NCBI GenBank assembly: GCA_008632985.1 | Contig: QPGO01000165.1 | Location: 1 to 64,000 of the forward strand | Length of the DNA: 64,000 nucleotides | Direction of reading: 5' to 3' | Origin: Psammoneis japonica | Taxonomy: Eukaryota | Part shown: positions 726 through 38,422 of the stretch, in pieces | Layout: every line of letters starts with the position of its first letter | Numbering within the stretch: the first letter of the stretch is position 1 | Position numbers and translations under genes: made by a program | The notes under the pieces: model-generated | What the model saw: the letters and a program-made list of their open reading frames with translations, nothing else | Database searches by the model: none | What the model was told of the DNA's origin: nothing

Positions 726-731
726 TCCCTT

Positions 732-735
<4 letters not shown>

Positions 736-772
<37 letters not shown>
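736..772. repeat. (TC)n microsatellite; a separate poly-C run lies at 964-986
   Basis: Directly visible. Confidence 0.95.
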
Positions 773-775
<3 letters not shown>

Positions 776-10758: not shown

Positions 10759-10921
10759 TTAGAAGAGTTCGGAGGTTCGAGTTCGAGCCGACGAGCAACG
10801 GTGGAGATAGATTGGAAATGAGGAGATGAGTGAGGACCGACGGCGTTTTATCCATTGACTCTATCCAGTGTACTCATCTCTTGTCGATACTAAAGCCATA
10901 AGTTACACTGGTTATACAAAA

Positions 10922-12043: not shown

Positions 12044-12795
12044 TGTAACGAACCGAAAACGATGTTTGTGTTTTGGTTAAAACACGCATGATGCTGAATT
12101 ACTAGATAATCATAGTTTTGTGAGGGTAATGCATCGCGTATTTCAATCATTAAAATCAAAATTTAAGAATTTCTTTTTTCCGTATGAGACTGTTGTTGCT
12201 ACATCACATGGCAATACAGTAACATCTTTTTGCTTGTTCGAAAATGGCTTGATAATTAATTAATAATTGAACAGCAAACAAGCTTGGCTGCACGTTGTTT
12301 TCTCTTGCGACAAGAACGGGCGTGATGCTGCTGATTATTATTACAGCGCAAGACTTCTTGTTGACTTGTTGGTCATCGTGCTCCTCATCCAGAGCTAAAG
12401 CCAATGAGGCCCGTCGTCTTCCGACTGTGAAGTAAACTACACGAAAGGGCCCAAAATCCGGGTCTCTCTTTGTACATTATTTGTACGTAAATTTGTATTC
12501 AGTCGAAATAGATACTGTAGCAAAAATTTCTTAGAAAAAAGGGAATTTGCTTATTCGAAGCCATTCTGTGAAATTGCTGAATCCTTCGGGGTTTGCCGGC
12601 GTGCATAGTGGCGGGCTTGCGCGCGTGTCACTTCAAAACTCGAAAGCATTCGCTTCGACAATGAGAAAATAATGAGAAACTTGCTTTGCGACGGCATGTT
12701 TTCTTTCTCCAGTGACGGCAACAACAGAAGCTTTTTCATTCTCTATCATACCATATAACCTCGTGTTTTGATTCTAATCCTTGAAAAGCTGCATC

Positions 12796-15168: not shown

Positions 15169-15548
15169 GTCAGATCAGAGTTGCAAGACAAGCACAGCCA
15201 ACTTGCGAGATTGACGCAAGGTCGTCCTGAGATATCAAACCGGGGAGTCAATACTCGCATGTCTAGATGGATAAGGTGCTTACTCTCTGGAAAGACTTTA
15301 TCAGCAGAAAACATCTGCGTGCGTAGCTTTCCACTGGCCATTGCAACTACCATACGATTTGAGAGGCTCCGTAGCTACAAGTATCCGATAATAGCTCTAC
15401 CTCTTGTCTACTGTAATCTTTGTCAGTTATTCTGATCACGAGATCCCGCCAAAAGAAAGGTGTGAGTAAAAATTCGACAAGGACTTTTTTTGAAAGAAAC
15501 AAAGTAAAGTAAAGCAACTCATTCGATTGTGAATGCAAAAATCGATTA

Positions 15549-16348
15549 TTATAGGGAATACGCATATGCAGACCCTGATGAATCACCGTTGATGCCACCG
15601 AATTGGGCCCCTACTCCAAGAACGGTTCCATTTGCGGACAAGGATACGGACCCTCCAAATTCATCATTTTCAGCCTCACCATTCAATGGATCGCCCACTT
15701 GACTCCATTCTTGCATTTCAGGATGGTATTGAAAGACTACAACTTGACCTGCGTCAACGAGTCCATTGACATCATGCCAAACACTTCCAACAGCCAACGC
15801 ATTTGCGCTTCCACTCAACGACACGGACCAACCAAAGACATCACCCGATTGTTGTGTGCGAAGGATTTGACCACGTGTTGTCTACAAGGACGTGGAATTA
15901 TCGTACTGATAGACCACGGCATACCCATCATTTCTATTTGCACCTCCTGCCACAATGTGACCCGTGTCATCAAGAGAAACAGACCATCCAAACTTGTCAA
16001 GAGCGCCAAGGCCGTAGATTGGATCCCCCATTGATTGCCAAGAGGACAATGCTGAATTGAATTGGTAAAGTTGAACCTGATTGGCATTATCGCCGCCCAT
16101 TGCAACAACGGTTCCCGAGCCACTAACGCCAACAGAAAAACCATGCTGAGCATCTTCTTCTACGCCAAGAATTGTTTCTCCAAGTTGGTTCCAGACAGAT
16201 GATCCGGCATTGTACTGAAACACTTGAACTGCTCCCGATCCCCTTCCATTGATCGTGTCGGCCCATCGTACCCCAATCGCAACAACGTCCCCTCCATTCG
16301 ACAACGAGACGGAACAACCAAACAACTCACCGCCACCTTGGCCGAGAA
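15549..16348 (-). pseudogene. 3' fragment of the FG-GAP-like beta-propeller gene, truncated at the duplication junction
   Basis: Repeats FGxSVSLS.xG..VA.G; near-identical to 36011-36810; in-frame TAG at 15882-84. Confidence 0.8.
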
Positions 16349-19300
16349 GGAGTCTCTCACAGCCATCCAAAGACAACTGGTCACTTGCGCTGTCACACAG
16401 ATGGCTCCATGGTCTCTGCACAGGTGTGTTGGCTGGGCCAAAAAAGCCCCCAGTCATGTCAGAAAGGAAAGGGGCCACATTGACACAAGAAAAGGCCTTT
16501 GCTCCCCAACCAAGGGGTTGTTGTTGGCTCTCCTGGGACACAATGGAATCACCCAAGGCCAGCAAAAGACGTCCGGGCACTTGCGCTGTCACACAGAAAG
16601 CTCCCTTGCCTCTGCAGGTGGGGTGGCTGGGCCACCACAGCAAGCCGATCCCATCAGAAAGAAAAGGGGCTGCACTGGCCCAAGACAAGGCTTTTCCTTT
16701 CCAACCATCATTGCAACCGCCTCTTCCTGGACCCAACAGAGTCTCTTGTGCCTGCCCCCAGACAACTGAGTGCTTGCACTGTCACACAGATTGCTCCCTT
16801 GTCTTTTTTGCAGGTTGAGCCACCAAAAGCCATCCCAAGACAACAGAGTGCTTGCACTGTCACACAGATGGTTCCCTTGTCTTTGCAGGTTGGCTGGTGC
16901 CTCCACACCTTGTGCAGCTGGGCATCTTCTTGTGTGGAGGACATTCATGCAAGGGGCTGGGCCATTGTCTTCATTTGCGGTGATGGCAAGAGGGAAAAGA
17001 TGAGACATTCTTCCCAGTCTCTGTCATCTGGCAATGGCTTTCCAAGCAGTGGCACCATTGCTTGCTTTGTGAGATGCAAAGACCATGCCTTGGCAAGTTT
17101 AAATCTGAGCAACTCTTCCTGCTGTTCCCAGTGCTTCTCTTCCTGCAGCGCTGGGTGGGGGTGTGTGCTTGCCAAAGTCATTGTCAGGGTTCAGGCCAAA
17201 ATGGAGAAAGAAGAGCACTGGGAGATGCCCTTGAAAATGTCTTGAGAGTTAAGAAAATGTTGAACAAGAAGAAGCAGGATGATGTGGGCTGGTCAGTCAA
17301 TGCAGGACTCTTGCCACTGTGGTGAATCCCAAAATGTCCATTGCCGCCATCTGTAAAGAACAGTCAGGCTGACATCACATGCAGCACTGCGTGTGCATTG
17401 AGATGTCACTTGATCCATTTCAGCTGCTGTCCTCCTTTCACTCCATGCAGCAAGCACCTGTTGGCTGTCTCTAGAGCAGAGAGCAGTGATTTGGCAGAGG
17501 CTGCATGACACCCAACTGCTGCAGTGCTCAGCAGAAATCCAACAGCAAATGTGGACAAGAATGATGGACGGCAATTGCAAACCAGGTCCTGCACAGGACA
17601 GTTGAGCACAAAAAAGTGAGAAGATGTGGCATCACACTTCATCACATGGAAGTTGCACAAGTGCTTTTTTCATCATGGTCTTTTCCAAGATGGATCTTGG
17701 TCTCCAAACTCATGCTCTGCTCCTTCTCGTCTTTGTCACCAACATCTCCATGTTGCCACATTCCAGAACAAGATTTGCGAGCTGTTTCCTGGGCAACCTT
17801 CAATTCCACAGACATGCTTGCCAGGCCACTGCCTTCCAAAATTTCAATGCCAGACAGTCTGCGTTGGTTTGCTTGACTGCATGAGCAACAAGTCCAGCAG
17901 CCACAAGTTGTTCATCAATGGCCCGACGCACAGCTGAGCAATCATTGAGCAACAAACAACAACGGAAGAGATGGCCACACAAACTTGCTTTGAAAAACAA
18001 ACAAACAAAAGCTTGCCTGCATCCATTGCTTTCATGCCCCCCATCCACATTTCAAATCCAACAATGTCCATTCTTGCAGTGTCAGCACTGACACCTGAGT
18101 CTGAGCGACAGGCATTGCTGCGACAGTGTGCTGCCACACCATCAATGGTGCTGCACTCTCTGTCAATTCTGATGCAACAAAAGAGCACAGCCAGAAACAT
18201 GAGTCAGTGTGGAACAATGCCAAGACATTGCATGAAATGTGTTGAGCGACAAATGACAACAACGCAAGAGACAGCAATGCAACTTGCTTTGGTGCCAAAA
18301 CAAAAGCCTTGCTTGCATCTCTTTTGCCCCCCTTCGGTGATTCAAAGCATGATTTGTTACAGCTGCAATGTCTCAAACAGCAGAGTGACAGCAATGCTTT
18401 GAATGCAGTCAAATTGCTGCAGCAGAAGAAGCGGGAACAACAGGAAGCACATCATCAAAATCAAAAATGCAATTGGGTGATGGAAGACATCACCTGCCAT
18501 GGTGATTCTGTTGCAACAGTGAAGACAATCATCACATCATTGCAGCTGTTGGCGTTGATGTGGTGTGTGTGGTCTGGTGTGAAAAAATGTGCGTCTGCCA
18601 ACTGCAAATTGGGCCACACAGGTGTCAACAACTTGAAAAAGAAAAAAATGGTTAAATTGTTTGTGGCTCAATGTTTGCAAAAATGCACAATTAACAACTG
18701 TGTAAATTGAAGATCAGTGGACAGAGTTAGAGCCTGCCTGTGCAACAATTTTGTTTGTCAACAAGCTTCATTCTTGACAAGCACCAAAACATGTTGCAGA
18801 CAAAGGTTGTGGCATGCAAGCAAATTTCTGAGGTGCCATCTTATGTGCAAGCAACTGCAGCAGACAGTCATGCAATTGAGTCCAACGCATTGTTGTGCAT
18901 CGTTGCTGAGGTTTGAGAGGGGTTGTGAGGGGGGGTCAGCCACTGTTTGACAAGAGTGTGCAAAGCTGCATCTTGTTCTCCAGGAAATGACCCATGTGCG
19001 CACTGCAAGTGAGAACTTGACAAGCTCAGAGCTGGGCCACTGTGTGTGTCAACCCACCATCAGGGGGTGTTTCAAAGTCACTGCATTGCACCGTGAGGTC
19101 AAAACATTGAGAAACATTTTGACTTGCCGGGGAGCACCCAACAAGCACACAGCCATCAAGAAGAGTTTTGATGACATTGACAGGAGGGTGAAGCTTGCAA
19201 AAGAAAAACAAGGGACAGGAGGAGACAAGATCCATCATGCCCCCCTCCAGAGTCAAATGACAAGCATGCCTCCCAGATTTTTGGAGAGACATTTGGGAGC

Positions 19301-22300
19301 ACATGAGGTTTTTTTTAGAAAGTGGCCTCAAGCAAAACATGGGCTTTGACCAGCAAGAAGAAGTTGCTGTTGTGTGGAGGTTGTCCAAGAACAAAACAAG
19401 CTTGTCCCACGTTTGAGCTGCTGCTGTGTTGCCATTTTGTGCACAGTTTTTTGTTCTGAAACATTTGATGAGAACACACAAAAAACCACATTTTCTTGTC
19501 CTCCAGAAGATGAGCCATGAGTTGCCCACAATAAAATGGTTTTGTTGTCCATTGAAAGCAAGAATTTGACAAGTTCAGCTGAGCCACCACACCTCAAAAC
19601 AGGCCGCTGTGCTCTGGATGATTGTGTTGAAACACTGAGGTGCATCTTGCTTGACCTGCTGCAGTGGCAAGTTTTGATGACATTGACAGGAGGATGAAGC
19701 TTGCAAAACAGATGGTTCATGAGTGCAAGACAAGATCCATCATCCCACTCCAGAGTCAAGTGCAAAGTTTTGGAGCACATGAAGCCTTTTGTGGAACAGG
19801 GGCTGCTCCTCCCAAAATGCGAGCTTTGACCAAGTGCTCCACGTCTGGTGTGGCAATGATCTGAGATGCGAGCCAGCATGGCACAAAATTTCCGTTGCTG
19901 CAGAAAGTCGGATTTGTCCTGTGTTGTTAATTGCCTGATGCTAAGTCTGCACGCCGGTGTGCAGACAACTGATGTTGTTCGTTAAACCATGCTGTGATCT
20001 TGCACACTCATGCCCGAGTTGATTCATGCCACACAATCTTGTCACCTGCCACGTGTCGTTGCTGCCATGTGGTTCGTCCCACTCATTTTCATTTCATTTG
20101 TTTTTACAACATGAACAATGGCACCCCCCTTTGCCGTCGGAAATGATTGTCCCATGTGCGGCAAACGTTTTCTCTCAACTGGTCTTCAACACCACCTGAG
20201 AACTTGTCTTCCCTGCAAACTGTCCTTTTCTCAAAGCCTTCGTGACGTTTCTTCCCGTCAATCCCACCCCGCCAATGGAGAACATCCCCAAACTGGAGAA
20301 ACAGATGAACAAGTGGATGTTGCCACCTCTTCTGCTCTCAGCTCTCCTCCATTCGAATTTGTCGCCGCAGGCCCCGATGCCAACAAATCTCCATCTCCGC
20401 CAGGTTACACCCGACACAATCCCCGGCCGCCGCGTTCCCATCGTGCATCTTCATCCATGCCAGAGCTGCGTGTTTCCCACAACAATTCCATTCTTCCCCA
20501 CGTTGATGATGTTTCAGAATGTCAGTTTCCCGACCCCGAAGAATTTGTTTCCGACACCGAGGCTTCTGCCATCAATGTTGCAGAATCTGGCCCCTTTTCC
20601 GCACTCGATCAAGTTGGGCACCTCTCCGCGGACGAGGACCTCGTGGTGCCCGAAGTGCACAACTGCAAAACAACATCCATGGTCCGCATGTTGAATTTGT
20701 GCCACTCCAAGGGTGCCCCAATGAGTGTGACAGATGAATTGCTGAGAACTGTGCAGGAGGAATTCTCCAGTGGTGGGTTGTCCGTCACAAGACAAATTCC
20801 CTCTTCTCGAACTTTCATGTCCAAGCTCAAGTCAATGTTGCCCAGCGTTGTGGCCCCTGTGCTGCAGCACATTCCTCTTGAGTCTGTTTCCATCGTCAAC
20901 CAATTCAAGACCAACCCGCCTCAGGATCTCTCTCCCAGCATCCCTGTGTGCGACTTTTCCTTTCAACTGCAGGATCTGTTCGACGATCCCCTTTTTGCCG
21001 ACCTTTCAAATCTTGATGTTCCTCCTGATTCACGTTGGTCTCAGGAGCTCTCCAGTGAACCCATGTTGGATGAGAATGGCAACTGGAAACTTTGTGACGA
21101 TGCCGAAATGAAGGATGGTGAAACTCACAGGAACTGTGTTTGTGGCAGCAATTTTCCCACCGTCCCCGGTTTCTTTCATGTGTTCCTTTTGCATTTCACC
21201 GACAAAACCGGGAAAGGACAGGTCTCACCTCATTCGATGGAGCCATTTGTTTTCTCTATGACTCTCATCAAGTCATGTGCCCGCCATCATTTTGAAGCAT
21301 GGCGTCCTCTTGGATTTGTTCCGAAACACACCGGTTGCAAAACAAAGAATCCCGTTTTTGGGATGAACGTCAGAAATTATCACTGAATTTTGTCTGTCAT
21401 CCTAGCGTCTGTGATTCAAGCGCAAGAATCACCTCCTGTCTGCTGAGTCCAACTTGGCGATCAGTGTTGTTGTGAGCACATTGTTGTTCACAGCGTGACA
21501 TTGTTGGGCGATGCTGTTGACGCCGCACAAGTCACCGGTCATGTTTCTGGGCGTGAGAACTCCTGCCGCATCAGTCATGCCTGTCACACTTCCTGGACCA
21601 ACAGCAATGAACAATGAACCTTTACAATGCTGCAGGCACTTTTCCCAAGAACTGATGGAGCGTTTGACTGTGGCAGCCCTTGGTCACTGCGATGGATTGT
21701 GCGAAGTTGTGGAGCAATTGCACGAATCGTGTGAAAGAGAGAGAGAGAAGAAGCGGGTGTAGATGAGGAAGACAGAAGGGTGAGAGCAAGGCTGAGCGAT
21801 GAGTGAGAGAGAAGAGATGAGCCCAAATGCCTGCACAGCATGTGATCAAACTAGTGCACACCAAAATCATGGAAATTTTTAACAAACCAGTGAGTTGAGG
21901 ACAATGTCAAAACAGTGTTCTGTTCGTGGTGGGCTCGCAGCAGAGCAAGCTGGGGGCAGCTAGAGAATGGTGACCCAGACGGCACAGCGAGACATTGCAT
22001 GCCAGCCAACAATGAAAAAACAAGGTTTAGGACTGCAGCCCTTTCACACAGGAAAATTGTGCCCACAAAATAAAATTGGCTGGCGATTTGAAAATTGTGG
22101 CATGCAACAGTGGGGAGTGCGATTGTTCTTCGCTCGGATCATGAAATGTGCAGTGAACGGATGATGGGCGGGAGGCTGAAAACAACAAAACATGCCATTC
22201 AAAAGGAATGTAAAATTCATCAATTGATGTTTGATGATGAGAAATTTGAAAAATTTGGCATGCAACAAAAGGGAGTTTTTAGAAAAGGGCGAACGTGCGT

Positions 22301-24126
22301 GATGGCTGGCACACACTCCAGGACTGGGTTTGGCGCAGAGGGGATGATTTCATTGACACAACACGTGAGGATGGGTGGGCAACATGTCGGTGCAAAACAA
22401 TTCATCAGGTGCGTGCATTGCGGCGTCAGTGCACAAACAGATTGGCCCTCTCACGCTGCTTGTGTGTCCTTCATGACAGTCAGCACCCATGACACAACAA
22501 ACACAGGATGCCACAATGTCCAGATTGTGGGAATGTCGGTCGTGAGCTCGGAGGTGGCAAAGAAAAAGTTCATGGATGGCCAGACAACCAATTGCGTTAC
22601 AACTGCGGTGCACCAAGGACAAAGTTCGTGATGCACGATGACATCAAGTTGGCCTTTGGGAGCAAAATGCAGAAAAAGGTTTGCAAGCACCTCAATGTGG
22701 ACGTGGGTGACTGTGCAGTTTGGTGGGAAGAGAACAAGGAAAAGGTGAGGAAAAGACTCAACAGGAGAAGAAACAACAGACAGGAGGCATTTAGAAAGAA
22801 GATGGTTGGCAAGTAAAATTCGGGAGGCGGGTTGATGAGGTGAAGCAGTGTTCTCACCAATTGTTTCTTGCTCAGAAATGGCTAAATGCGAGGGACTAGA
22901 AACAGTCAAAGACATCAAAAAGGGCAGGCGGTTGGCTCATGCTCACTTCTGGTTCTTGGAGAATTTCTGCTCAACAGCGGCGGGCATGGAATGCTGCAAA
23001 ACAGCAGACAACCAAGGTGTCAGCAACTGGCTGACAACAAGCATGGAAGCTTTTGCAAGGCTCATGTGTGACAACTGCTGCAAAATGGCCTTGTCAGTAG
23101 CAGAGGTCGAGGAGGAATTCGAAGATGACGGAGGGGCGCACCAAACGACACAACCCGTGGCCCCAAAATGCACTTTCCTGGGGAAAGGCACAAAACAAAA
23201 TCAAGGATGGAACCAGGGTGGGATCAAAAAGCACAACAAACTCTACGATGCTGTGGCGAAGGAGAGAGAACAGATTGCAGCAGAGTCGATGCACAGCACC
23301 TGCAAACAAAGAAATCGGAGAGCGCTCATGGCAAGAAAAGAAAAAAGAAAAAGAAGGACAGCATGAGCGGATGGGCTGCTCCAAAAGCTGATTGGAGCGA
23401 CAGCAAAAAGGAGGCCGCTGGAAGGAACAACGAGCAAGTGAACAAAGAGGAAGAGGAAGAGACTCCAGAAGCAGCAGCGACCGACAACAGTGCTTCGACA
23501 CAAACGGGTTCTCGACAAAGAGTGGTGAACAACAACACACAGAAGCAACACAGGGTGCAACGAGGAAACGGGTGGAACAACAGCGGTGTTCACCAGTGTG
23601 CAGCAGAAAATGACGGTGGCAGCGATGTTGACCACGAAATCCACTCAGTTCAGAAGCAGCAGCTGTGTTGAATGTGAAAAGCGTCCAAGTGTTGCACTGT
23701 AAAATGATGGGCATGTTGTCCGTGTGCTTGTTGGATTTAAAGCAAGGTTTGAAAGCAATGTGAATCGGGGGCTGTCACAAAGGCAAATTGTCACATGGTG
23801 AAAAGGGGGCCAGTGTTGCACTTGACAATGTCAGGAACATTCTCCGCATGGTTGTCACATTTAAATTTTCTGGTGTTGCATGACAAAAAAAAAACCAGAT
23901 GGAAAGCAAGATTTCTGCCACGGCATGCAAGAATTTTAAAATTAAATTTAACAAAATTCTGCCATGAAGGGCAAGAATGTCGCACGCAAGTTCGCGCGCG
24001 ATGTCAGATTGTTGCCCCACCAGACGCAATCACAAAAAAAGTGATTGTCCTGTGTTTGAGCCAGTTTGTTTCATGTGCAGGTTTTTGCTCTGAAATGTGG
24101 GAAGTGATGGACTCCCACCGCCATTG
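16349..24126 (+). repeat. Direct segmental duplicate of 1745-9519 (second, 5'-truncated copy of the Plavaka-like element, right end at 24043)
   Basis: Near-identical sequence at an offset of about 14.6 kb; junction at a GGA microhomology (1745-47, 16349-51). Confidence 0.95.
20118..21740 (+). pseudogene. Plavaka-type transposase, second copy
   Basis: Translation nearly identical to 5511-6779. Confidence 0.7.
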
Positions 24127-25008
24127 AGAAGCTTCTTTTACGTCGGTGAAAAGTTGGAAGCAATTTTCTGGACTCTCGAAAACAAGCTGCGATGCTCCTG
24201 CTGCTCCACCGCCACCACTCCCGCCACCGGGCACTGCTGCAAGTTCCCCACCACCTCCTCCTCCCGCTGAAACGAGTGCAGAACAACAAGAACAACCCAA
24301 AGACGCCATTGCGCTTGCGGCCGAGTCAGTCTCTGCTACAGCTCCAAACCCGGGCACTTGCGAAGAAGCCACGTTGGATTGCAAGCGTCTCGTGCAACTC
24401 GACACCCACGATGGCTTTCGCGTGGACATCAACAAGCAGCTCAGTCCCTTCATGGCGGTTGTGCATTCCTTTTGGCTCGGCACGTCCATGCTTCCCGACG
24501 GACGCAACCGGACCTGCACCTTTGTCATGCACGCAGCCGATGAACAGGGACTTCTCATGGCCCGTGTCGATCCCGAACGCGGCTTGGTCGATGGACGGAT
24601 CCATCGTGCGCTCTTGGGCGGGTTGGCCATGGTCAAGGTACAAGCCGGTCTAAGTGTGAGTGGTGAACACGATCAACTCTTGGCTGAACTGGACTTTGGT
24701 GGAGAAACGTGGAGGGGTGACCTCAAGTGCGGCTCCATGGGTGGGGGGCAAGTGTTTGGATGCAATTGCTTTCAGAGTGTAACAGACCGGCTCGCCATGG
24801 GAGGGGAGGGCATGCACCTTGCTGCGAATCAAAACATTCTTTCCAATTGTGCCGCCAAATGCACTGCGCCCGTCAGAACGGAGGACGGTGACGGCGGCGG
24901 GTCTAGTGCGATTTGTGCCAACTTCAACACGTCCCAGGGACTCTTGTTGCTCAATTACAAACGAGTCGTGACACCCAACCGTGTCACACTTGGAGCCGAG
25001 TTGGAGTG
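24127..25008 (+). pseudogene. TOM40: TOM40 fragment, truncated at both ends and TpA-hypermutated
   Basis: Corresponds to 10942-11823; lacks the ATG because of a deletion equivalent to 9520-10941; 7 of 8 Tyr changed to Cys/His; fused to transposon sequence at 25009. Confidence 0.9.
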
Positions 25009-28000
25009 GGTCGACACAGAGGAACAGCAGTAAAACGCAAGGGCGCTGCAGCAGCGTCTAAGGGCAAGCTTGCCCGAAAGCAAAAAGATGTGGACGCGGT
25101 CCCGGTCCCAGCGCCAAGCCCGATGAAGTCACAAAAAACACAGCATGCTGAAGCGGCTCTCGGTGCTGAAACGGCAGCAGCACAAGACAAAGCGTTGAAT
25201 CAGCCGGATGGTCAATTGATGCGTGGGTTGGGTTTTGATGTTTTTGAGTCAGAACCATTGGATGAAGGTGTTGCATTTGAACAAGACGGCGAAGGGAAAG
25301 AACTGCATGCTGAGAAACAACCAACCATCATTGCATCGTCAGCACCGGAGATTAATTTTGCCAAGAAGCATTTCTTGGAGTCTCTGCCAACTCAGTTGAA
25401 GCAATTGACAGAAGACAAGGAAGCAGCACAACTTTTGGACGAGTTGGCAAACATGGTGGCGGCGAAAATTCACTCCGCTGCCAGTGCAGACCCCAAAGTG
25501 AGTCCCGAGTCAATGTCGCATTGCTTTGAAATTGATGGAAAAGCGGGTGCGGAGTCAGCCGCACAAACTGTGCATCCAATGCAACTTCGTCACAATAGAG
25601 CTGTTTTGGATTTTGATTCTGTTGCAACAGTGCCTTTGGATGAAGAAGCCGCATTTAAATGCAAAGCAAATGGGCAAAAGCGCAGTGAAGCTGCGAAACG
25701 GCAGGCCAAGGCACGAGCCATAAAATCAATTGTGGACGCTGCACTCAACTCATCCGACAACCACAATGATCGCACTGTTGCCTTAGCGGGGGCACTTGCT
25801 CATCCAAAAATGTCAAGCATCACTGAGAATGTCAATCCAGTCACGCCGGAAACAAAAATGCTCAAAGACGCTTTCCAGCAGCAGCAACGAATGATCGAAC
25901 GAGCTAGTGTTACAAACAAATCCCGGGGTCGAACCAATGATGACAAACGTTCGTCAGTTGAGACTGTTCTAACATGCTGTGCCGATTCACCTGATAAAAT
26001 CAGAAAAGGAAACAGCTCTCTCCTGATTGAGACTCTTGGTTTGGCGAAAAGCACCGGGTGCCGAAACACAAAGAAGGCGAAAGCGAAACGTGCCGCACTC
26101 TCTTCGAATGCAAATGGTGTTTCATGGGCAAATGTCAAGCGTCGAAAGGGATTTTCTAAAGTCACACCGAAAATTCGTGAAGCACTTGTCAAATGGATTT
26201 TGGCACACCCCCAGGTTGTGCAATCGCCTGTCAAGGACGAGACTGCACCAGTGCAAAATCCTGACACAACTGGCGATGTTAAAAAAGTCCGTGTCCCAAA
26301 GTTGTTGCTCCAAGTGAGCATCCAAGAGCTCCACAATGATTTGACATCTGAGGAAGAACATGGTTTCAAGCATGCACGAGATGCTGATGGCAATGTCATC
26401 ACAAGTGACACTGCTCTACGTCATCTGCTCCCAGAGCAGATGTGCAAAATGTCGCCACGACACAAACAGATGTGCGGTTGCGAGTGCTGCATTGCAGTGC
26501 GGAGCCATCAGCAATCCCTCAACGCGTGGCGTCGTCGTCATTTACAAAAGCTGAAAGATGCGTCTCGTGATGAAACATTGCCCCAAGAGGAGAAAGAGAA
26601 ACCAGAAGTTCGTGCAACTGCACACAAGAGTGCGATGCCACCCAATGGGCAGCCACCACATTCCATGCCACGAGATGCAATTGCCGCCATTCAGTGCGAG
26701 GAAGTGGCTTCTGTGGGACACCTGCACTGGCGATGTGTCCTGGGAAAATGCCAAGATTGCCCCAAGCATGTCACTCTAGAAGAAGAAAAAGGTGCGGATG
26801 AGGCGAGTGCACCGCGGATTGACTTTCATGAATGTGAAAAGATGACCACGTGCACCATTCATGGCGTCCCACCAAACAACCCAAAGGAGTGCCAAGCATG
26901 CCAAGGGTTTGCGGCAGGAATGAAGCGGGGTGAGGTGCACAAGCGGAAGCACCTTGCCAAAAAAAACGCAACCATGGGCAAGTTTGCAAGGAATCATTGT
27001 GTCCCTTCTTTGGAAAAGCACCGATGCCATCGACCGCATGTCCGCATCCTCTCCAGGAATGGTTGCGGCGGCGAGCGTGAGCTGGCCTTTCAACGCGACA
27101 TCGGCTCTGTCAAGACAAGACGTGATTGTGCAGAACGACTCCCGGCCAAGTTCAACATGGAGATGCAGAGCGAACATTTTGGAAATGGCCGCTCACTTTC
27201 AATCGAAGGGAGCACTGTTGAAACCCATGCAGCCGAAGCAATTGCAAGTGGACAGATTGACAACGAACTGCCCCAATGAGACCGATTCCCTCTGCAGACT
27301 CACAGTCACTTTTCAGATGACTCACGCCAAGACGCATCCACTGCCCACGCCCACATGGATGAATTGTTAGATTTCCTGCTCAATCAAAAAAACGTAATGC
27401 AAATTCTTAAGATGCTGTGGGATGACACAGATGGGTGCTCAAAACAACATCGATGTGCCAAGGCATTTCTGCTGCTTACGATGTTGAGTTCCAAACATGA
27501 GATTGCTGTCGATCGAGCCATTGGTGCTCCTGAACATGGGAAAGACTTGGCAGATGCCATGAATGCGATGGACAAACGGCGCCTTGCCTCATGCATGTGC
27601 CTCATCGGAACTCCAGAGGCAAATGACAAAGATGCAAGATTGATGGCCGCGGAATCAATTGTTGACTTTGGTTTGAAGAGCCTTGCAGAGGAGTGCAAGA
27701 GGCTCTGTGAGCTGCCGACGAGAGTGCAGGGCGTCAAGGGTCACAAGAAGCATGCAAAACGAGAGGCAAATGCAAGAATGCAAGAGAGACACTGCCACGT
27801 GCAGAAGAAAGAAGACGCACCTTACACCAACATGGCCGTCAAGGCCCATTTCCCCGACGACTTGAAACACATGGAGTCCTGCAACCTTCGCACCGATTGG
27901 GAACTTGGGGTGGGTTGGATTGCGGTGCGCAGGATCCCGTGTGCCTGCGCTGGGTGCCTTGCTCAACTGGCTCTGGATTGGGTGCCAGGAGTGTCTCGAG

Positions 28001-28824
28001 ACAAGCAGCCTCGATGCAAAGGCGGAAACAAGGAGTGTGAGAGGTGGCCAATGTTTGAAGGATTGAACGATTGGCGCATCGCACCTTTGGTCCGGGTTGC
28101 CAACAAGCATGAGGCAGTAGAAGCTCTTTCTCAGCAAGAGCTTGAAGAGGCGCAGGATCATGTGCTGACAGGGATTGAAACAAGGATGGCAGAGGGGATT
28201 GCAGTTGGCAACAAAGGAGCGTTTGCGACAGAAGACGAGGAGACGAGTGGCCACCATGTTGTCGAATGGACTAGCGAAGCATGTGCACTACAGGATGACA
28301 AGGCACTCACCGATTTTGACCCTCCAGTGATGCTCAAAGCCGGCACACTTGTTGCGGATGCCACACATCTCAATCAGGTACCACGAGCCCCACTCTGGCA
28401 CACGCCATCAGCCATTTCCACCACTGTTGTTGCAAAACAGGTTGTCGCTTCACACCTTGATCTCCTTCCAATCTCTGAAGACAACCCTTTGCCACAGGGG
28501 TGCCGCAACAAGAGAGAAGCAATGGACAAAGGTGGGATGCAGGTGAAGGGCGAAAGCCACGAAGAGATCATTGAGGAACTGGCACATCGAGTTGCTCTCG
28601 ATCACGAGGAATTCGACGAAAATGAAAGCAGTGAAGATGAGGGGGGAAACGAGAGTGAGATGGAAGGTGATGATGACATTGACAACAGCAGCGACAGTTG
28701 GTTGCAGCACAATGTTTCACGAATGCAACTCACATTGGCGCGCGTCCTTGCATCACCTGCGCCCAGGTACAGAATGCAGTTCCGTTGCAGTGCTAAGAAC
28801 AAAAACAGCAGCACAGCCAATTGA
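25009..28824 (+). pseudogene. Large Cys-cluster DDD/E transposase (Sola-like), frameshifted near 27280
   Basis: Motifs CGCECC, RDCAER, QSEHFG..SIEG, WDDTDGCSKQHRC, EHGKDLADAMNA, RRIPCACAGC. The superfamily call rests on remembered motifs plus the 4-bp TSD of the related MITEs. Confidence 0.6.
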
Positions 28825-29900
28825 TGCCTTGCATCTGCCACAACATTTGCATCTGCATCAACATCCAACATCGCATCAACATCCAACGCCTTGCATGCAT
28901 CCACTTGCCTTGGGAGCAAAGAAAGGCAGAAACGTGCAGTGAGAGATGCCGCGGTGCGTGACGGGTGACAACGAAACGAACGCGTTTCTACAACACATGA
29001 GAACCCAATGATCACTCACCAGAACACTGGCCGGCCATTCCCAGCATCTGTGACTGCAGTCCCATCGATGCCCAATGTTTTACCTCTCTCTACTTTACGT
29101 CGTAATCGAGAGAGCGAAAAGGAAGAAACACGTCGCGAGAGACACACCACGGGTAAAAAACCAAAAGAACGCGCTTGCACAAAAACTAAGAACCCAACAA
29201 TCACTTGCAATCAGACTAGTTGACCGTGTCTAGACTCTGTTGCCACAGTCGTGTGCATGCCCAACGTCTTGCAACTCTACTCGAGAGAGTGAAAAGGAAG
29301 AAACACGTTGTGAAAGATGCGTGATGAACACGTGACGGGCGAAAAATCAATGGAAGGCGATGCGACAACAAATCAGAGACAACCACTTGCTTGCCAACAC
29401 ATCAATTCGACAAAAAAGCATCTGCAACTGCATCTGCATCAACATCCAATGTCTTGCAGTCTCTTCTTGTTGTGTGTGTGCACGAAACAGCAGAAAAAAG
29501 CGTCACATTGAAAGCAGCACAATTTCTTTGCTTCTTGCGCAGATTCAGAAATAGAAGCTGTTTGAAGCACTAAAACCGATGTGTCTCATGCGATGATGAT
29601 GCTAGAGACACATGAAAAGGATGGTCAACAAAAGACCAACGTAAAGACTGCTGTCATGGCCAAGAAGGCTTCGTCGCTGTTGGAGAATGCATGAGGCGAA
29701 TTTTTGCCAGGAGTGAGTCTTGGTTTTTGTTGACATCCTAAGTCACCAGGAGAACATTTCTGTCATTTTTTTATTCGTTTTGAATGCATTCATTAAGATG
29801 ATTTATTTCCTAAGATTCGGATGTCACATTTAAAAGAGCTCGTACGTAGGCTTCTACGGCCGAATGTCACACGGAGTCCCGCCTGGGGCTGGAACGCGTC
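25009..29900 (+). mobile_element. 5'-truncated Sola-like DNA transposon; probable partner of the MITEs at 38423 and 39110
   Basis: Right end gtcacacggagtcccgcctggggctggaacgcgtc (ends 29900) matches the MITE TIRs; carries a large DDD/E transposase. Confidence 0.7.
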
Positions 29901-30495
29901 TTGTCCTGTGTTTGAGCCAGTTTGTTTCATGTGCAGGTTTTTGCTCTGAAATGTGGGAAGTGATGGACTCCCATTGCCATTGTCACTTGTTTTGCGCTGC
30001 TGGCAAATTCAATGCCATCATCTCCTGCAGAGCTGTCTTCTCTTTGCACGTGTCTCTCTCTTGGAGCACAGCTGCACGAGGAATGCCAAGCCTTTAGCTT
30101 TCTTTGGTTTCTCTCATGTCTGGACCAATGGTGGTGCAATCAAGATGAGAGGAGTGTTGAAGTGATGGTGAGCATGTGGTTGGCACCTGCGCCATTTTTG
30201 CTCTCTGCCTTTGGTGTGTTGCACGCACGCCAGTGGCTGCCTGGCTGCGATGATGTGACAGCAACACTGGAGCACTTGACATGAATGGTTGCCATTGTCT
30301 GTACATTGCACTTTTGTCTTTGAAATGGATTGCTTCAGAGACCAGAAGAAGCAATGATGTGTTGTTTGTGCTTCCTCTTCCTTCAACAACCACAGGAACT
30401 CACTCGAGCGCAGAGAGCAAACACACAGACGTTCGTCGCGCAACTCGCGCGATGCCACGTCACGGCCGCTCCTGCAACACATCCATGACCCGTTA

Positions 30496-31220
30496 GACCC
30501 TGTCCAAACACTGTCACATGCATGATCATACCTGACATCACAGCACCTAAAATGAGCCTCTTCGAAAAAATCAGTGGTTGTCAGCCCTGTGCATGATGTA
30601 ATTTTAGGCCATGCCAACTTTCACGAGGATGTTTGTTCTCGCGAGAACAGACTTCCTCGGAAACATCATACCCCAACATCATGCCCCACCGACGAAACAC
30701 GAAAACAACTGACATGCATCGTTTTTTGACACGTCCAAAGTGCGTGTGGCTGTGCATCATATGAGGCAACCACATGAGACCATGCATGAGCCGCTTGTTG
30801 TCTTTGGGGGGCTTTGTGTGCCATTCTGGACTCTTCTGACACAACCATTTTGCCAAACAGTTTCTTAAAATAAATTCATGTCACACACTCTTACAGACAA
30901 CTGATTTAGCCATAAGTTGCACACAAGCATGATTTTTTTGTCAACAGGTGTCCATTGCATGGCTTGTTGTCGCCTTGTGGTTGCGTTTTCGTCGTCATGG
31001 TCATGTCGCTCTCGTCGTGTTGTTGTCGCTGGTTCATTCATGTTGCATCTGGTGTTGCTTCACGCACTGCAAGTTTGAATCATTCGATTAATGTCTGTGA
31101 GGTGCTGTCATGCGCACGAATGTGTTTGGACAGAACATTGTGGGCATGACCTGTGACGTCATCATAAAAGCCTGCGTGACGTGGGTGTGATCACACCTGT
31201 GACAGTGTTTGGACAGAGTC
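30496..31220. mobile_element. Second copy of the Harbinger-like MITE, hypermutated
   Basis: Same TIRs and TTA flanks as 10034-10758. Confidence 0.8.
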
Positions 31221-31383
31221 TTAGAAGAGTTCGGAGGTTCGAGTTCGAGCCGACGAGCAACGGTGGAGATCGATTGGAAATGAGGAGATGAGTGAGGACC
31301 GACGGCGTTTTGTCCATTGACTCTGTCCAGTGCACTCATCTCTTGTCGATGCTAAAGCCACAAGTTACACTGGTTGTACAAAA

Positions 31384-32505
31384 ATGGGAACGTCAACTTC
31401 CAAAGAAGCTTCTTTTACGTCGGTGAAAAGTTGGAAGCAATTTTCTGGACTCTCGAAAACAAGCTGCGATGCTCCTGCTGCTCCACCGCCACCACTCCCG
31501 CCACCGGGTGCTGCTGCAAGTTCCCCACCACCTCCTCCTCCCGCTGAAACGAGTGCAGAACAACAAGAACAACCCAAAGACGCCATTGCGCTTGCGGCCG
31601 AGTCAGTCTCTGCTGCAATTCCAAACCCGGGCACTTGCGAAGAAGCCACGTTGGATTGCAAGCGTCTCGTGCAACTCGACACCCACGATGGCTTTTGCGT
31701 GGACATCAACAAGCAGCTCAGTCCCTTCATGGTGGTTGTGCATTCCTTTTGGCTCGGTGCGTCCATGCTTCCCGACGGACGCAACCGGACCCATGCCTTT
31801 GTCATGCAAGCAGCCGATGAACAGGGACTTCTCATGGCCCGTGTCGATCCCGAACGCGGCTCGGTCGATGGACGGATCCATCGTGCGCTCTTGGGCGGGT
31901 TGGCCATGGTCAAGGTACAAGCCGGTCTAAGTGCGAGTGGTGAACACGATCAACTCTTGGCTGAACTGGACTTTGGTGGAGAAACGTGGAGGGGTAACCT
32001 CAAGTGCGGCTCCATGGGTGGGGGGCAAGTGTTTGGATGCAATTGCTTTCAGAGCATGACAGACCGGCTCGCCATGGGAGGGGAGGGCATGCACCTTGCT
32101 GCGAATCAAAACATTCTTTCCAATTGCACCGCCAAATGCACTGCGCCCGTCAGAACGGAGGACGGTGACGGCGGCGGGTCTAGCACGATTTGTGCCAACT
32201 TCAACACGTCCCAGGGACTCTTGTTGCTCAATTACAAACGAGTCATGACACCCAACCGTGTCACACTTGGAGCCGAGTTGGAGTGTTTGCCGTCAAGCCT
32301 AGAGTCACGGGTGGCGGTTGGAGCCAAATTCAAGCTGTCACGGTCCAAAATGGCTCTTTGTGCAGACGGAACGGGCAAGGTTCAAAGCACGTTGGAGGCA
32401 AAGCTTGGCATGGCACCGGGTTCGCCATCTTTGAACTTTTCGGCAGAACTGGATCATGCCAAGGATCAAATGAGGTTTGGATGTGGCATTGCGATTGATG
32501 GATGA
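31384..32505 (+). pseudogene. TOM40: Full-length but hypermutated TOM40 copy; ORF open, probably non-functional
   Basis: Same length as 10922-12043; 8 of 9 Tyr changed to Cys/His, several Thr>Ala, Ile>Met and Val>Ala changes; stop TAA>TGA. Confidence 0.85.
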
Positions 32506-33257
32506 TGCGACGAACCGAAAACGATGTTTGTGCTTTGGTTAAAACACGCATGATGCTGAATTGCCAGACAATCACAGTTTTGTGAGGGCAGTGCATCGCG
32601 CATTTCAATCATTAAAATCAAAATTTAAGAATTTCTTTTTTCCGCATGAGACTGTTGTTGCCACATCACATGGCAATGCAGCAACATCTTTTTGCTTGTT
32701 CGAAAATGGCTTGACAATCAATTGACAATTGAACAGCAAACAAGCTTGGCTGCATGTTGTTTTCTCTTGCGACAAGAACGGGCGTGATGCTGCTGATCAT
32801 TGTCACAGTGCAAGACTTCTTGTTGACTTGTTGGTCATCGTGCTCCTCATCCAGAGCTAAAGCCAATGAGGCCCATCGTCTTCCGACTGTGAAGTGAACT
32901 ACACGAAAGGGCCCAAAATCCGGGTCTCTCTTTGTACATTGTTTGTGCGTAAATTTGCATTCAGTCGAAATAGATGCTGCAGCAAAAATTTCTTAGAAAA
33001 AAGGAAATTTGCTTGTTCGAAGCCATTCTGTGAAATTGCTGAATCCTTCGGGGTTTGCCGGCGTGCACAGTGGCGGGCTTGCGCGTGTGTCACTTCAAAA
33101 CTCGAAAGCATTCGCTTCGACAATGAGAAAACAATGAGAAACTTGCTTTGCGACGGCATGTTTTCTTTCTCCAGTGACGGCAACAACAGAAGCTTTTTCA
33201 TTCTCTGTCACACCATGTAACCTCGTGTTTTGATTCTAATCCTTGAAAAGCTGCATC

Positions 33258-35630
33258 ATGGGTCGTCATCATCATCCTCGTTACGATCGTCGTTCTTCCT
33301 CCAGTGCAATTTCTTCTTCTTCTAGCACATCTTCCTTGTGCCACCGTCTCGATCAAGCGCTCCATCCTCCACGATGGTCCAGCACGAGCAGCAGCGGCAT
33401 TAAAAGTACAAGCAAAATTTCGTTGCGTTCCTCTCATCATGGCCGCATGCGTCGTCAACAACGTGCGTCATCCAAATGCGAGCTGAAACGAGCCATCAAG
33501 TGCGGTCAGCGTCGAGTGCTGCCGGGAAGAAGAAGGCTCAAATGTCGATTCAATGGTTCAGTGGTTGTTGTTGATGGATGCACAAAAACGGAAATTACAA
33601 GTTACAAAGAAGTGATGGACGCTGATGCACCGTTTCAAACCATTTGTCCAGAGCAACGGAAATGACATGACGATGCTCGCAAACTCAATCAGCAAGAGGC
33701 ATGTTTGAACTGTGCACAACATGAACACATGTCGTAAGTTGACCAAACCAACAGAACAAGACAACTCATGTTTGCTTTTTGTTTTCCATCTATGCAGCCA
33801 CGACAATGCAAGAGCCACTCCATTTTGCTCATTGACAAGAGCGGATCGATGCACACGCCGGACGTGCAGGGTTGCAATTCTTGTCTTGCTTCTGTGTTTT
33901 TAGCCATTGCTCAAGACTTTGTCCGTCCTCGCATTGACGCAGCCGGACGAGGGATGCAGGGTGCCATTTCGGTGATGATCATGGGCGAACGACCCTTTTT
34001 ATGGATGAATGCGTGGCCCACCGACTTTGTCACGTACAATGCCTTTGTTGCGGCATTCAAGCATGGTCATGTCCAAGCCGAGGGACATTGCTGCTGCCGA
34101 CCATCAATTGACACGGCTCAAACAATCTTTGACCGACACGACTCTGCCACGTGTCAATTGGTGTTGGGAATCTTTGCCGATGGACGACCCAGTGACTCGT
34201 CCGTGTTCAAAACCAATTGGGACCAATCGGTCCAATCCATTTCCACATCCGTTCAATCCATGGCAGCCAAGATTGGCAACCGATTGCAAATCCGAGCCAT
34301 TGGCATGGGATCTGCCAATCAATGGCAAACGCTGGATGCTGTGTGCCAAGTGGCTCGCAATTGTGGTTGTCAAGCGCAGGTGGAAACACCCAGCATGTCC
34401 TCGTCCAGTCTAGGTGCCGTGGTGAGCAGCATTGCAACGTCGCTTGCCACGTCACAAGTTGACAACCATGGTTCTTCTGATGATGGCGTCAATCGTGTCG
34501 TTCGACCGGTGCGTCGTGAAGACCGATCTCGTGTGCCGCTCTTGACGGAAGCGGTGGATGCTACGGATTTTGACATTTTCATGCAAGACAAGGTGGTTCG
34601 GGAAGAACACATTGGAGGAGATGCCTTTGTGCAAGCTGAGTTGCAACACCCGGAAGCCCGCGGTGTTGCAGTGCGCAAACAACCCTTTGATGAAGGCAGC
34701 GAACGGTTTGCCTGTCAATTCTTTGAAGTTGCACAAGACGGACGAACCGTCGTTGGAATGCCGCTGGTTGCCAAGGCGTGCAAATTTGTTCTAAACAATG
34801 ACAAGGATGAAGACGACGGTGGTGTGTCGTTGGAAGAGTACACGCACAAGTTTGTGACACGCTTTTGTCGTATTCATACCGTGGCAACCCAAATAGCAAA
34901 TGCCTTTAATGAACGGTTGGACAAGATTGCGCGTCTCGATTCGAGCGTGCCGCGTGTCGAGTTTCTACCCTGTTCGGTCTATCGTCTCGAGCACGACGAC
35001 GGAACTACGTCTGCCTATGTGGTGGAGCCTCGTCTCTTGGGAAGTTTCAAAAGTGGAATAGCAACAATGGGTGGATTCGTGAACGCAGTACAAAGCCATC
35101 ACCAGTGAAATCGATGGGCATCTCTTGTGGTGGTGGTTTGGTCCCCATCAAGGAAGAAGTAGACGAAGAAGTGTTGAACGAAGAACCCATGGACAAAGAA
35201 GAGGAAAAGTAGGAATCATCCAGTATGGATGTTGCCATGGATTCATCAGGTAACGCTGTGATTGATTTAACCACAAGCGACGACGATGACGAGGGCGAGT
35301 GCTTGTTTGTGCAGGGAGACGATGTTGCCCAGGCCTTTTCTCACTTTAGCTATTCGCTAGAACGCCAGAAACTACTCGTGTGTGACTTGCAAGGTGTCTA
35401 TGATCGTCAGGAACTTTTGCTTCGTTTCACAGATAGATCCCGTCATTCACCACGTCGTCTACAAGGAAACCGAGGGTGCAGCAAACAAACGTGGCAGCAG
35501 CAAGTACGGACGAACCGACCGTGGTAACAAGGGTATTGCTGACTTTTTCGATACGCATCCATGCAATTGCCTTTGCAATATAGTAACCAAGGGTTTTCTT
35601 CCAGTCAAGACTACGAATTTTGAAAAGTAA
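33258..35630 (+). pseudogene. Second vWA/alpha-kinase copy
   Basis: Extra stop at 33663-65, 1-bp indels near 35038 and 35440, same internal TAG. 5' part TpA-mutated, 3' part not. Confidence 0.85.
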
Positions 35631-36010
35631 GTCAGATCAGAGTTGCAAGACAAGCACAGCCAACTTGCGAGATTGACGCAAGGTCGTCCTGAGATATCAA
35701 ACCGGGGAGTCAATACTCGCATGTCTAGATGGATAAGGTGCTTACTCTCTGGAAAGACTTTATCAGCAGAAAACATCTGCGTGCGTAGCTTTCCACTGGC
35801 CATTGCAACTACCATACGATTTGAGAGGCTCCGTAGCTACAAGTATCCGATAATAGCTCTACCTCTTGTCTACTGTAATCTTTGTCAGTTATTCTGATCA
35901 CGAGATCCCGCCAAAAGAAAGGTGTGAGTAAAAATTCGACAAGGACTTTTTTTGAAAGAAACAAAGTAAAGTAAAGCAACTCATTCGATTGTGAATGCAA
36001 AAATCGATTA

Positions 36011-38202: not shown

Positions 38203-38422
38203 TGTGATGATTCTTTGCACACTGAGCAAAAAGTGCAAAGCCCAGAAAGAGAAAGCGAGCTCCGACCCTTGAGCTCGAGTCATCATCGCATCAGCCAGCA
38301 AACACAACCTGGATGTTAAAGTGTGGAGAACTGACACCTGGCTGCACAAGCACCCATCGCCGAAGGCAGCTGCACTGAAAGACAAGGAACAAAATGAGAA
38401 GAAAAGTGCAACATGCAGACAA

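Follow-up and report, generated by a model that had tools for sequence, protein, structure and literature searches.

Introduction

Mutagenesis confined to one dinucleotide and to particular genomic regions has been described in the chlorarachniophyte Bigelowiella natans, from mutation-accumulation lines sequenced with Illumina technology (Mettrop et al. 2026, bioRxiv 10.64898/2026.01.13.699255). According to the accessible portion of that preprint, all but one of the 231 mutations found in two integrated viral regions were A>G or T>C, and these 230 all fell on TpA, at a rate about 1000-fold that of the background. TpA-depleted, CpA+TpG-enriched clusters with reverse-transcriptase and DDE genes are also described there, and an ADAT2-like adenine deaminase is proposed as the agent. 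Here we analyse positions 1 to 64,000 (forward strand) of contig QPGO01000165.1 of the diatom Psammoneis japonica. This whole 64,000-nt stretch, hereafter the window, is eukaryotic nuclear DNA and holds three copies of a gene for the eukaryotic porin TOM40, one intact and two mutated. In these TOM40 copies we see, at a young stage and with good internal controls, a hypermutation of TpA to TpG or CpA that runs throughout the window, a kind of process described once before.

The diatom locus resembles the B. natans regions, as far as the available text describes them, in its near-exclusive A>G and T>C changes on TpA, which give TpG or CpA according to strand, in its confinement to regions, and in its TpA-depleted, CpA+TpG-enriched 1-kb clusters. 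The clusters of B. natans carry transposon-type genes, and the rest of that genome is unaffected. The two cases differ in supergroup (a stramenopile diatom here, a rhizarian there) and in targets, which here are transposon-like DNA and adjoining duplicated host genes rather than giant-virus or virophage insertions. Erosion is also deeper in the diatom, with rho(TA) at 0.00-0.2 over about 44 of 64 kb compared to 0.45 in the viral region. A T-A-Y context (Y, pyrimidine), one hit per site, sharp edges, apparent spreading and CpG decay were found here and are not in the B. natans text; the portion of that text available is silent on diatoms, on any preference for the 3' neighbour and on any link to methylation. 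While the evidence from B. natans is direct (new mutations in culture), that from the diatom is comparative. Our literature searches returned no report of TpA>TpG/CpA hypermutation in diatoms, and the B. natans preprint was the only report found.

Four other known systems share some of these features. Repeat-induced point mutation (RIP) of ascomycete fungi likewise wrecks repeats and mobile DNA by massive dinucleotide-specific transitions, can affect neighbouring sequence and leaves a bimodal composition. However, RIP turns CpA/TpG into TpA, raises AT and creates stop codons, while the process seen here turns TpA into CpA/TpG, raises GC and creates no stops. ADAR hyper-editing and fungal ADAT (Tad2/Tad3) mRNA editing also cause A to be read as G with a strong preference for a 5' U/T, but they act on RNA, whereas the changes described here are in genomic DNA with both strands interleaved. 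ADAR also favours a 3' G, unlike the 3' pyrimidine found here. APOBEC3/AID activity is similar in being a deaminase-type, context-specific hypermutation directed against mobile or foreign nucleic acid; it differs in converting C to U on single-stranded DNA in strand-coordinated clusters, in contrast to A:T>G:C changes without strand runs. Finally, methyl-CpG decay of silenced transposons affects the same tracts, with rho(CG) at 0.1-0.7 in the old blocks, and also yields TpG and CpA, but it is by our estimate about 18-fold slower per site and explains no TpA change.

Results

The TOM40 copies are as follows.

10922-12043, forward strand: TOM40 copy 1, intact and intronless, 373 aa plus stop; the unmutated ancestral state
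24127-25008, forward strand: TOM40 copy 2, an 882-bp fragment forming the left end of an insertion; TpA changed at 18 of 25 sites (13 to TG, 5 to CA)
31384-32505, forward strand: TOM40 copy 3, full length; 19 of 25 TpA changed in the shared 882 bp (13 to TG, 6 to CA)

Copy 1 lies inside an open reading frame (ORF) at 10868-12043, with its Met at 10922. From its sequence it is assigned to TOM40, a eukaryotic porin: the Pfam family Porin_3 (PF01459) matches at 90.6 bits (cut-off 28.4) over profile positions 1-271, and a search returned 422 homologs (top identity 73%) that their sources label TOM40. The homologs with a named organism are diatoms without exception (e.g. Attheya, Fistulifera, Skeletonema, Seminavis, Thalassiosira). 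Porin_3 scores are lower in the mutated copies, at 63.3 bits for copy 3 and 37.3 for copy 2, which is partial. The reading frame of copy 3 is still open despite Tyr>Cys/His and other replacements at conserved positions. Copy 2, within which falls the stretch 24480-24920 that a preliminary description of this DNA had singled out, joins unrelated DNA at both ends, with 0-2 bp of microhomology.

All three copies share 882 bp that align with no gap (10942-11823, 24127-25008 and 31404-32285). Across this length copy 1 has 25 TpA dinucleotides, occupying 50 of the 882 positions. Of the 26 positions at which copy 2 departs from copy 1, 18 lie in TpA (Fisher p = 1.5e-18); copy 3 departs from it at 25 positions, 19 of them in TpA (Fisher p = 7e-21). 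All 18 and all 19 of these changes are A>G or T>C. The joint states of copy 2 and copy 3 are TG/TG at 8 sites, CA/CA at 2, TG/CA at 4 and CA/TG at 3; of the remaining sites, 3 changed in a single copy and 5 are unchanged in both.

The preliminary description held that the same TpA sites had been hit independently and on opposite strands in the two mutated copies, and the four examples it quoted were all located in the sequence. Thus ggaccTATAcc of copy 1 (11325-11335, encoding RTYTF) is ggaccTGCAcc in copy 2 (RTCTF) and ggaccCATGcc in copy 3 (RTHAF). Likewise, agTATAac (11593-96) reads agTGTAac and agCATGac, aatTATAcc (11663-66) reads aatTGTGcc and aatTGCAcc, and agTAcg (11722-23) reads agTGcg and agCAcg, copy 2 being given first in each case. 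Among the 17 doubly changed sites, 10 have the same outcome and 7 the opposite one. At RTAY sites (R, purine), where T-A-Y is available on both strands, the two copies agree at 4 and disagree at 6, in line with independent 50:50 choices, whereas at sites with T-A-Y on one strand only they agree at 6 of 7, in line with the motif. The hits in copies 2 and 3 thus behave as independent events that follow one common motif, and no shared TpA hit has to be assumed. The further proposal that mutagenesis recurred after duplication and on both strands is supported.

That TA is the ancestral state, which had been argued from the discordant outcomes, is shown by orthologs as well. We used an alignment of 120 TOM40 homologs, of which the named ones are all from diatoms. 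Wherever copy 2 or copy 3 differs, the conserved ortholog residue is that of copy 1. Homologs carrying the copy-1 residue number as follows.

Y137: 120 of 120
Y248: 120 of 120
Y208: 119 of 120
Y367: 115 of 120
Y237: 114 of 120
T126, Q142, N205 and E315: 120 of 120 each
R105: 119 of 120

Since the copy-1 residues are conserved in orthologs, TA is ancestral and copies 2 and 3 are derived.

An ancestral CpG was considered separately and rejected. It would have become TG or CA in copies 2 and 3 and TA in copy 1, which needs Arg in the ancestor; the orthologs carry Tyr and have no Arg column. It is also disfavoured because methyl-C deamination is not expected to hit one CpG twice.

Copies 2 and 3 also share variants outside TpA, and these had been taken to imply a common precursor distinct from copy 1. 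The shared variants are present, at 11343 and 11500 (both CpG>TpG) and at 11755 (A in both mutated copies where copy 1 has T; the agggActc of the preliminary description). By a hand-computed hypergeometric estimate (65 CpGs, 4 changed in copy 2 and 5 in copy 3), sharing at least two CpG-type changes by chance has a probability of about 0.03. A common precursor is therefore plausible, and even likely, on the strength of three sites. In its simplest version, copy 2 would have been copied from the nearby copy 3 before either was mutated.

Self-BLAST places copies 1 and 3 in the two units of a recent tandem segmental duplication, within which a young hypermutated tract can be compared directly with its unmutated counterpart.

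1745-16351: duplication unit 1, consisting of block A (1745-9519) and block B (9438-16351)
16349-36813: duplication unit 2, consisting of A' (16349-24126), the insertion and B' (29901-36813)
24127-29900: insertion, 5.8 kb, in unit 2 only; a TOM40 fragment plus TpA-poor, mobile-element-like sequence
30758-34714: young hypermutated tract in unit 2, 3,957 bp; upstream region, copy 3 and the first two thirds of the alpha-kinase/VWA copy
10296-14252: unmutated counterpart in unit 1; TOM40 copy 1 and the alpha-kinase/VWA gene (13285-14751)
15980-16351: end of unit 1, adjoining the TpA-poor A'; here unit 1 is the mutated one, with CA/TG at 5 sites where unit 2 keeps TA (36442-36607)

A and A' are 99.16% identical over 7,779 bp and B and B' 97.34% over 6,915 bp, with 184 differing positions between the latter. 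The units meet at a microhomology of 3 bp (GGA), and microhomology at the joints throughout the duplication structure is 0-3 bp.

In the young tract, 118 of 161 TpA have changed (64 to TG, 52 to CA, 1 to TC and 1 to CG), so that 116 of the 118 show a single clean A>G or T>C transition. The tract has 144 differences in all, of which 118 are TpA-type, 17 CpG-type and 9 other. The changed fraction is roughly uniform along the tract and then stops abruptly at the right edge. To the right of 14252 (14253-16351 and 34715-36813), 0 of 76 TpA have changed, and the 1,727 bp of 14253-15979 have 0 substitutions. CpG changes follow the same boundary: 17 of 239 CpGs changed in the tract, every one in the mutated copy, and 0 of 94 in the flank. 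From 118/161 and 17/239 we estimate that TpA was lost about 18-fold faster per site than CpG.

At the end of unit 1, one of the five changes has turned the aromatic position of an FG-GAP repeat motif from Y, which unit 2 keeps, into H. The full-length FG-GAP gene is the unit 2 copy. Polarity was read here from the repeat motif and not from ortholog columns, as the homolog search returned thousands of repeat proteins. Taken together, the sequence comparisons show at least three separate episodes since the recent tandem duplication, in copy 2, in the 4-kb copy-3 tract and at the end of unit 1. Duplication is not sufficient for mutation, as neither copy 1 nor the right-hand 2.1 kb of B/B' was touched.

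Two further observations concern the left part of the duplication. Between 9438-10295 and 29901-30757 there are about 7 adjacent double differences of the CA/TG type in 858 bp, and A/A' has 3 (3420, 7738 and 9271). These could be old TpA sites hit oppositely in the two units or CpGs that decayed on opposite strands.

The 116 transitions of the tract have T at -1 in every case (116/116), as the definition of the TpA class entails. On its 3' side, the edited A is followed by C in 51, T in 44, A in 15 and G in 6. Per target A, hit rates are 0.50 for TAC, 0.50 for TAT, 0.18 for TAA and 0.12 for TAG; per site, they are 0.89 in YY contexts, 0.77 in RY and 0.31 in RR (a purine 3' on both strands). 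Only TpA is attacked, T-A-Y being the context of the changed A when read along its own strand. The old TpA-poor blocks described below carry the same context bias as the young events. There, TAT is at 4% of its frequency in normal DNA, TAC at 10%, TAG at 19% and TAA at 27%, and RR contexts make up 109 of 225 residual TpA compared to 127 of 791 in normal DNA.

The 64 TG and 52 CA outcomes are intermixed along the tract, forming 66 runs where 58.4 are expected (z = +1.4), the longest of 8 sites. The absence of strand runs speaks against both an RNA or single-stranded intermediate and a sequencing artefact of the strand-majority kind. Together with the six 3' G among 116, it also departs from the ADAR-type pattern of one strand per molecule and a 3' G. 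Either strand can be hit, the choice being made independently at each site. Only 1 of 161 tract sites became CG; each site is hit once, as would follow if TG and CA are no longer substrates. As the process removes TAA and TAG and creates no stops, copy 3 stays open.

An 82-bp sequence is directly duplicated on either side of the insertion (24045-24126 and 29901-29982), whose 1-kb bins have rho(TA) of 0.09-0.30. The insertion is a patchwork in which the 882-bp TOM40 fragment is followed by unrelated element DNA, with 0-2 bp of microhomology at the joints, and it looks more like a product of break repair or template switching than of transposition. It carries the following ORF.

27283-28821, forward strand: insertion ORF, of a eukaryotic family without a name or Pfam family; Tyr codons eroded

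This ORF has 26 homologs (36-54% identity) from marine metagenomes, transcriptomes and one haptophyte. At its 11 conserved-Tyr columns it has no Tyr, and instead 5 His (CAY), 3 Cys (TGY) and 1 each of Leu, Lys and Phe; its Tyr content is 0.4% compared to 3.0% among the homologs. Of 30 metagenomic loci of the family, 29 have rho(TA) of 0.44-0.88, against 0.09-0.30 here, which indicates that the TpA depletion of the inserted element is secondary. The Atlas neighbours of the ORF are DUF7869 clusters, which we treat as a lead only. Viral contigs scanned with the family alignment yielded no relative. The hypermutated tracts have sharp edges and run continuously into TpA-free, CpG-depleted transposon-like DNA.

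The same erosion may occur in another organism. One locus of this family from a sediment metagenome (L023) has rho(TA) of 0.19 and rho(CG) of 0.03, with Cys or His where a 91%-identical locus (L018) has Tyr. TpA-type changes between the two number 11 in one direction and 5 in the other, alongside 49 other mismatches, 1 CpG-type change and 5 indels. On these short, low-coverage contigs the comparison is too noisy, and we rejected L023 as a second case.

At the right end of the insertion, 29872-30972 (corresponding to about 9409-10510) has a read-contig word depth of about 100-290, compared to about 31 in the adjoining insertion, and therefore belongs to a multi-copy genomic repeat.

The same signature extends over most of the window. 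About 44 of the 64 kb hold only 4.6-11 TpA per kb. In these parts rho, computed for TG and CA separately and not combined, is about 1.4-2.2, and that of CpG is 0.1-0.8. Per 1-kb bin, rho(TA) is bimodal, at 0.00-0.21 (plus one bin of 0.30 at the insertion end) or 0.43-0.87, and two 1-kb bins are without any TA. The remaining DNA has 30-67 TpA per kb and carries the TOM40, alpha-kinase/VWA, PEP (phosphoenolpyruvate) carboxylase and FG-GAP host genes. The TpA-poor blocks are listed here.

1-10050: TpA-poor block, old; 5.0 TA per kb
16150-29050: TpA-poor block with A', TOM40 copy 2 and most of the insertion; 6.2 TA per kb
37050-38350: TpA-poor block; 4.6 TA per kb
40050-44250: TpA-poor block; 5.0 TA per kb, with zero TA in bin 40001-41000
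49850-57850: TpA-poor block, including ORF 52620-53978; 5.5 TA per kb
60850-64000: TpA-poor block; 6.7 TA per kb

The ORF at 52620-53978 (forward strand) lies at Atlas 0.92-0.94 to Plavaka/CACTA-type (Transposase_21) clusters, in which 16-53% of members have PF18759; this again is a lead only. No homolog of this ORF was found at E <= 0.001 among proteins of similar length. It is weakly similar to the ORF at 5508-6779 (forward strand), in a different TpA-poor block (BLASTP E = 1e-7, 18% over 206 aa), and from this similarity the two may be remnants of one old DNA-transposon family. Pfam searches of 69 ORFs of at least 150 aa gave zero transposon or viral families; all hits were host genes, located in the young tract or in TpA-normal DNA. 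Within the window, tblastx and sensitive blastn revealed no repetition between TpA-poor blocks beyond the segmental duplication.

We also asked how far public reads support the sequence. The matching runs come from one sample only (X1-X3), and no RNA run was among the listed runs matching the window. Contigs from X1, at a word depth of about 31-40, match 24979-28486 (3,508 nt), 32453-32631 and 33439-33610 without a difference. The latter two span 13 and 9 positions, respectively, that differ from copy 1. X1 has 0.62 of the sampled words of the tract, and 0.40 of tract words occur elsewhere in the window. No contig of at least 99% likeness covers bin 28771-29504. Copy-specific pieces have about half the depth of pieces common to units 1 and 2. 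Support from accurate-read contigs is partial, covering the inserted element and parts of the copy-3 tract but not the TOM40 cores.

Several other features of the window were recorded. Because TAA and TAG are nearly absent from TpA-poor blocks, long ORFs crowd both strands there, and overlapping ORFs of at least 150 aa occur on both strands, for example in 1518-2656, 41094-43387 and 61064-63683. The interval 38351-40051, between two TpA-poor blocks, contains two repeats (38740-38815 with 39882-39957, and 38418-38520 with 39105-39213). The first of these, of 76 nt, resembles the last ~45 bp of the insertion (29857-29900), where its CCTAGGG has become CCTGGGG, another TA>TG change. In TpA-normal DNA, 45297-48640 (forward strand) encodes phosphoenolpyruvate carboxylase over three ORFs (PEPcase 1-156, 149-753 and 773-919), presumably exons with short introns between them. 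Also TpA-normal is 59000-59214, which holds three tandem copies of a 70-nt unit that are 91-95% identical.

Discussion

The explanation that we favour is an A:T>G:C hypermutation that acts on DNA, targets regions of silenced mobile DNA, spreads from them to neighbouring sequence and most likely proceeds by adenine deamination. We put its probability at roughly 0.57. Its parts do not stand equally firm. We have high confidence that the phenomenon is real and acts on DNA. Targeting by chromatin rather than by homology is probable, and on the chemistry the balance tilts towards adenine deamination rather than modification of thymine.

Under this explanation, the tracts would be chromatin that is silenced and CpG-methylated, with mobile DNA as the point of nucleation. 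Once the 5.8-kb insertion had occurred, the silenced state would have advanced about 4.8 kb into the host genes next to it in unit 2. Silenced chromatin would recruit an enzyme that deaminates DNA adenine to inosine, and replication would fix G. The outcome would be an irreversible inactivation of mobile DNA, with the destruction of Tyr codons, TA-rich signals and TA/TTAA target sites. Copy 1 would survive outside such a tract and is presumably the TOM40 gene that the cell needs.

Published figures from B. natans allow a rough check of the rates (Mettrop et al. 2026). From the 211 mutations, 6,169 TpA and 3,132 line-generations given in the part of the preprint available, we computed about 1.1e-5 mutations per TpA per generation. 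At this rate a loss of 73% of sites would take about 1.2e5 generations, during which a background of 3.5e-10 per site per generation would give fewer than one substitution over 4 kb, in keeping with the clean flank observed here.

A number of points weigh against the favoured explanation. The mobile-DNA nature of the TpA-poor blocks hangs on one homolog family and two Atlas leads, and the repeat-bearing interval 38351-40051 was spared (63.5 TA per kb, 40% GC). Silencing and methylation are read from CpG decay only. A change of A in T-A-Y is equally a change of T in R-T-A on the other strand, and sequence cannot separate the two. The preference for a 3' pyrimidine matches neither the known preference of ADAR, which favours a 3' G, nor the known tRNA substrates of ADAT2/3. 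As for the reads, X1 may itself be the source of the assembly, and the core of TOM40 has no contig of at least 99% likeness in copy 2 (24367-24733) or in copy 3 (31707-32440). At 33306 and 34714 the unmutated A is read by two contigs of about double depth, which are probably copy-1 or collapsed contigs. Finally, as the copy-specific pieces are of equal depth, units 1 and 2 could be a true duplication or, alternatively, two alleles that the assembler placed in tandem. The mutational inference holds for either.

The strongest alternative, which we consider unlikely, is that a TET/JBP-type enzyme oxidises the thymine of TpA in silenced DNA to 5-hydroxymethyl- or 5-formyl-uracil, which mispairs with G and gives T>C in R-T-A. 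The equivalence of A>G and T>C on opposite strands works in its favour, and the one-hit rule and strand symmetry fit it equally well. Base J of trypanosome telomeres and 5-hydroxymethyluracil of dinoflagellates also favour TpA steps. However, oxidised thymine mispairs inefficiently and yields transversions as well, whereas 116 of the 118 changed TpA show one clean transition. The authors of the B. natans study also favour adenine deamination, without a direct test in the text available (Mettrop et al. 2026).

A RIP-like process is less probable still. In this scenario the 882-bp TOM40 repeat formed by copies 2 and 3, 7.3 kb apart, would be the trigger, mutation would have struck both repeats together with the intervening and part of the flanking DNA, and copy 1 would have been kept because cells that lost it died. 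Both mutated TOM40 copies are indeed repeats in cis, the tract is continuous from copy 2 through copy 3, and RIP is known to leak into linkers and flanks. However, the right 2.1 kb of the 6.9-kb B/B' repeat is untouched in both copies (0/76 TpA; 0 substitutions in 14253-15979), and the tract ends 2.4 kb past the TOM40 homology. The inserted element has single-copy depth and is TpA-poor nonetheless. Neither of the hallmarks of RIP itself was seen: instead of an excess of TpA there is depletion, polarised by 120 orthologs and 25 element homologs, and duplication left copy 1 and the 76 flanking TpA of 14253-16351 / 34715-36813 unmutated. In B. natans, too, the hypermutated viral region is described as single copy (Mettrop et al. 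2026).

We give little weight to an artefact in which a long-read basecaller miscalls modified TpA of silenced DNA or near-identical copies were mixed in assembly or polishing. The gaps over the TOM40 cores, the two contigs that read A at mutated sites and the single sample, perhaps the source of the assembly, speak for it. The same signature was, however, called from Illumina data in another alga (Mettrop et al. 2026). Contigs of depth 31-40 reproduce 3,508 nt of the insertion and copy-3-specific stretches exactly, and X1 holds 0.62 of the tract words where 0.40 are found elsewhere in the window. A strand-majority artefact predicts long runs of one outcome, of which none was seen, and mixing of copies cannot produce TG and CA where the third copy has TA.

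Equally improbable is error-prone repair synthesis in heterochromatin by an enzyme like polymerase eta, which makes A>G errors at WA (W, A or T) with TA as a hot spot. Only TpA is hit in the tract, where 9 of 144 differences lie outside TpA and CpG and there is no AA>AG signal, and a loss of 73% of sites beside a zero-substitution flank is hard to reach at a polymerase error rate.

The weakest proposal is ADAR- or ADAT-like A-to-I editing of RNA followed by reverse transcription and integration or gene conversion. RNA-editing deaminases do prefer a 5' U/T neighbour for A>G. This preference is also discussed in the B. natans preprint (bioRxiv 10.64898/2026.01.13.699255), and copy 2 is an intronless gene fragment at an ectopic position, but we find the proposal hardly credible, as A>G and T>C alternate within a molecule where one edited RNA would give one type, the tract spans upstream DNA and two genes, ends inside an ORF and is colinear within a segmental duplication with identical flanks, copy 1 is intronless too (so the absence of introns is uninformative), and a 3' G is the least favoured neighbour (6/116).

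If hypermutation of silenced mobile DNA at TpA is real here, P. japonica represents a second lineage, and by our literature searches the first diatom, with TpA-specific A:T>G:C hypermutation. The window amounts to a natural experiment: background divergence among its three copies of one gene is close to zero, one of them was left untouched, and the other two were hit independently. Any mechanism must explain the T-A-Y context, one hit per site, independent strand choice, sharp edges, CpG decay and apparent spreading from the insertion. A natural enzyme acting on genomic adenine (or thymine) would be of interest both for genome defence and for base-editing technology. It should also be noted that the long open frames in eroded DNA mislead gene prediction and composition-based binning, and they are likely to be annotated automatically as genes.

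More tentatively, diatoms, and perhaps many algae of the SAR (stramenopile-alveolate-rhizarian) group, could possess a chromatin-guided enzyme that deaminates adenine of double-stranded DNA at T-A-Y. Such an enzyme would be a natural adenine base editor and a defence that needs neither sex nor homology, and it would have shaped most of this window. Its spreading from mobile DNA could turn neighbouring host genes into pseudogenes while leaving their frames open.

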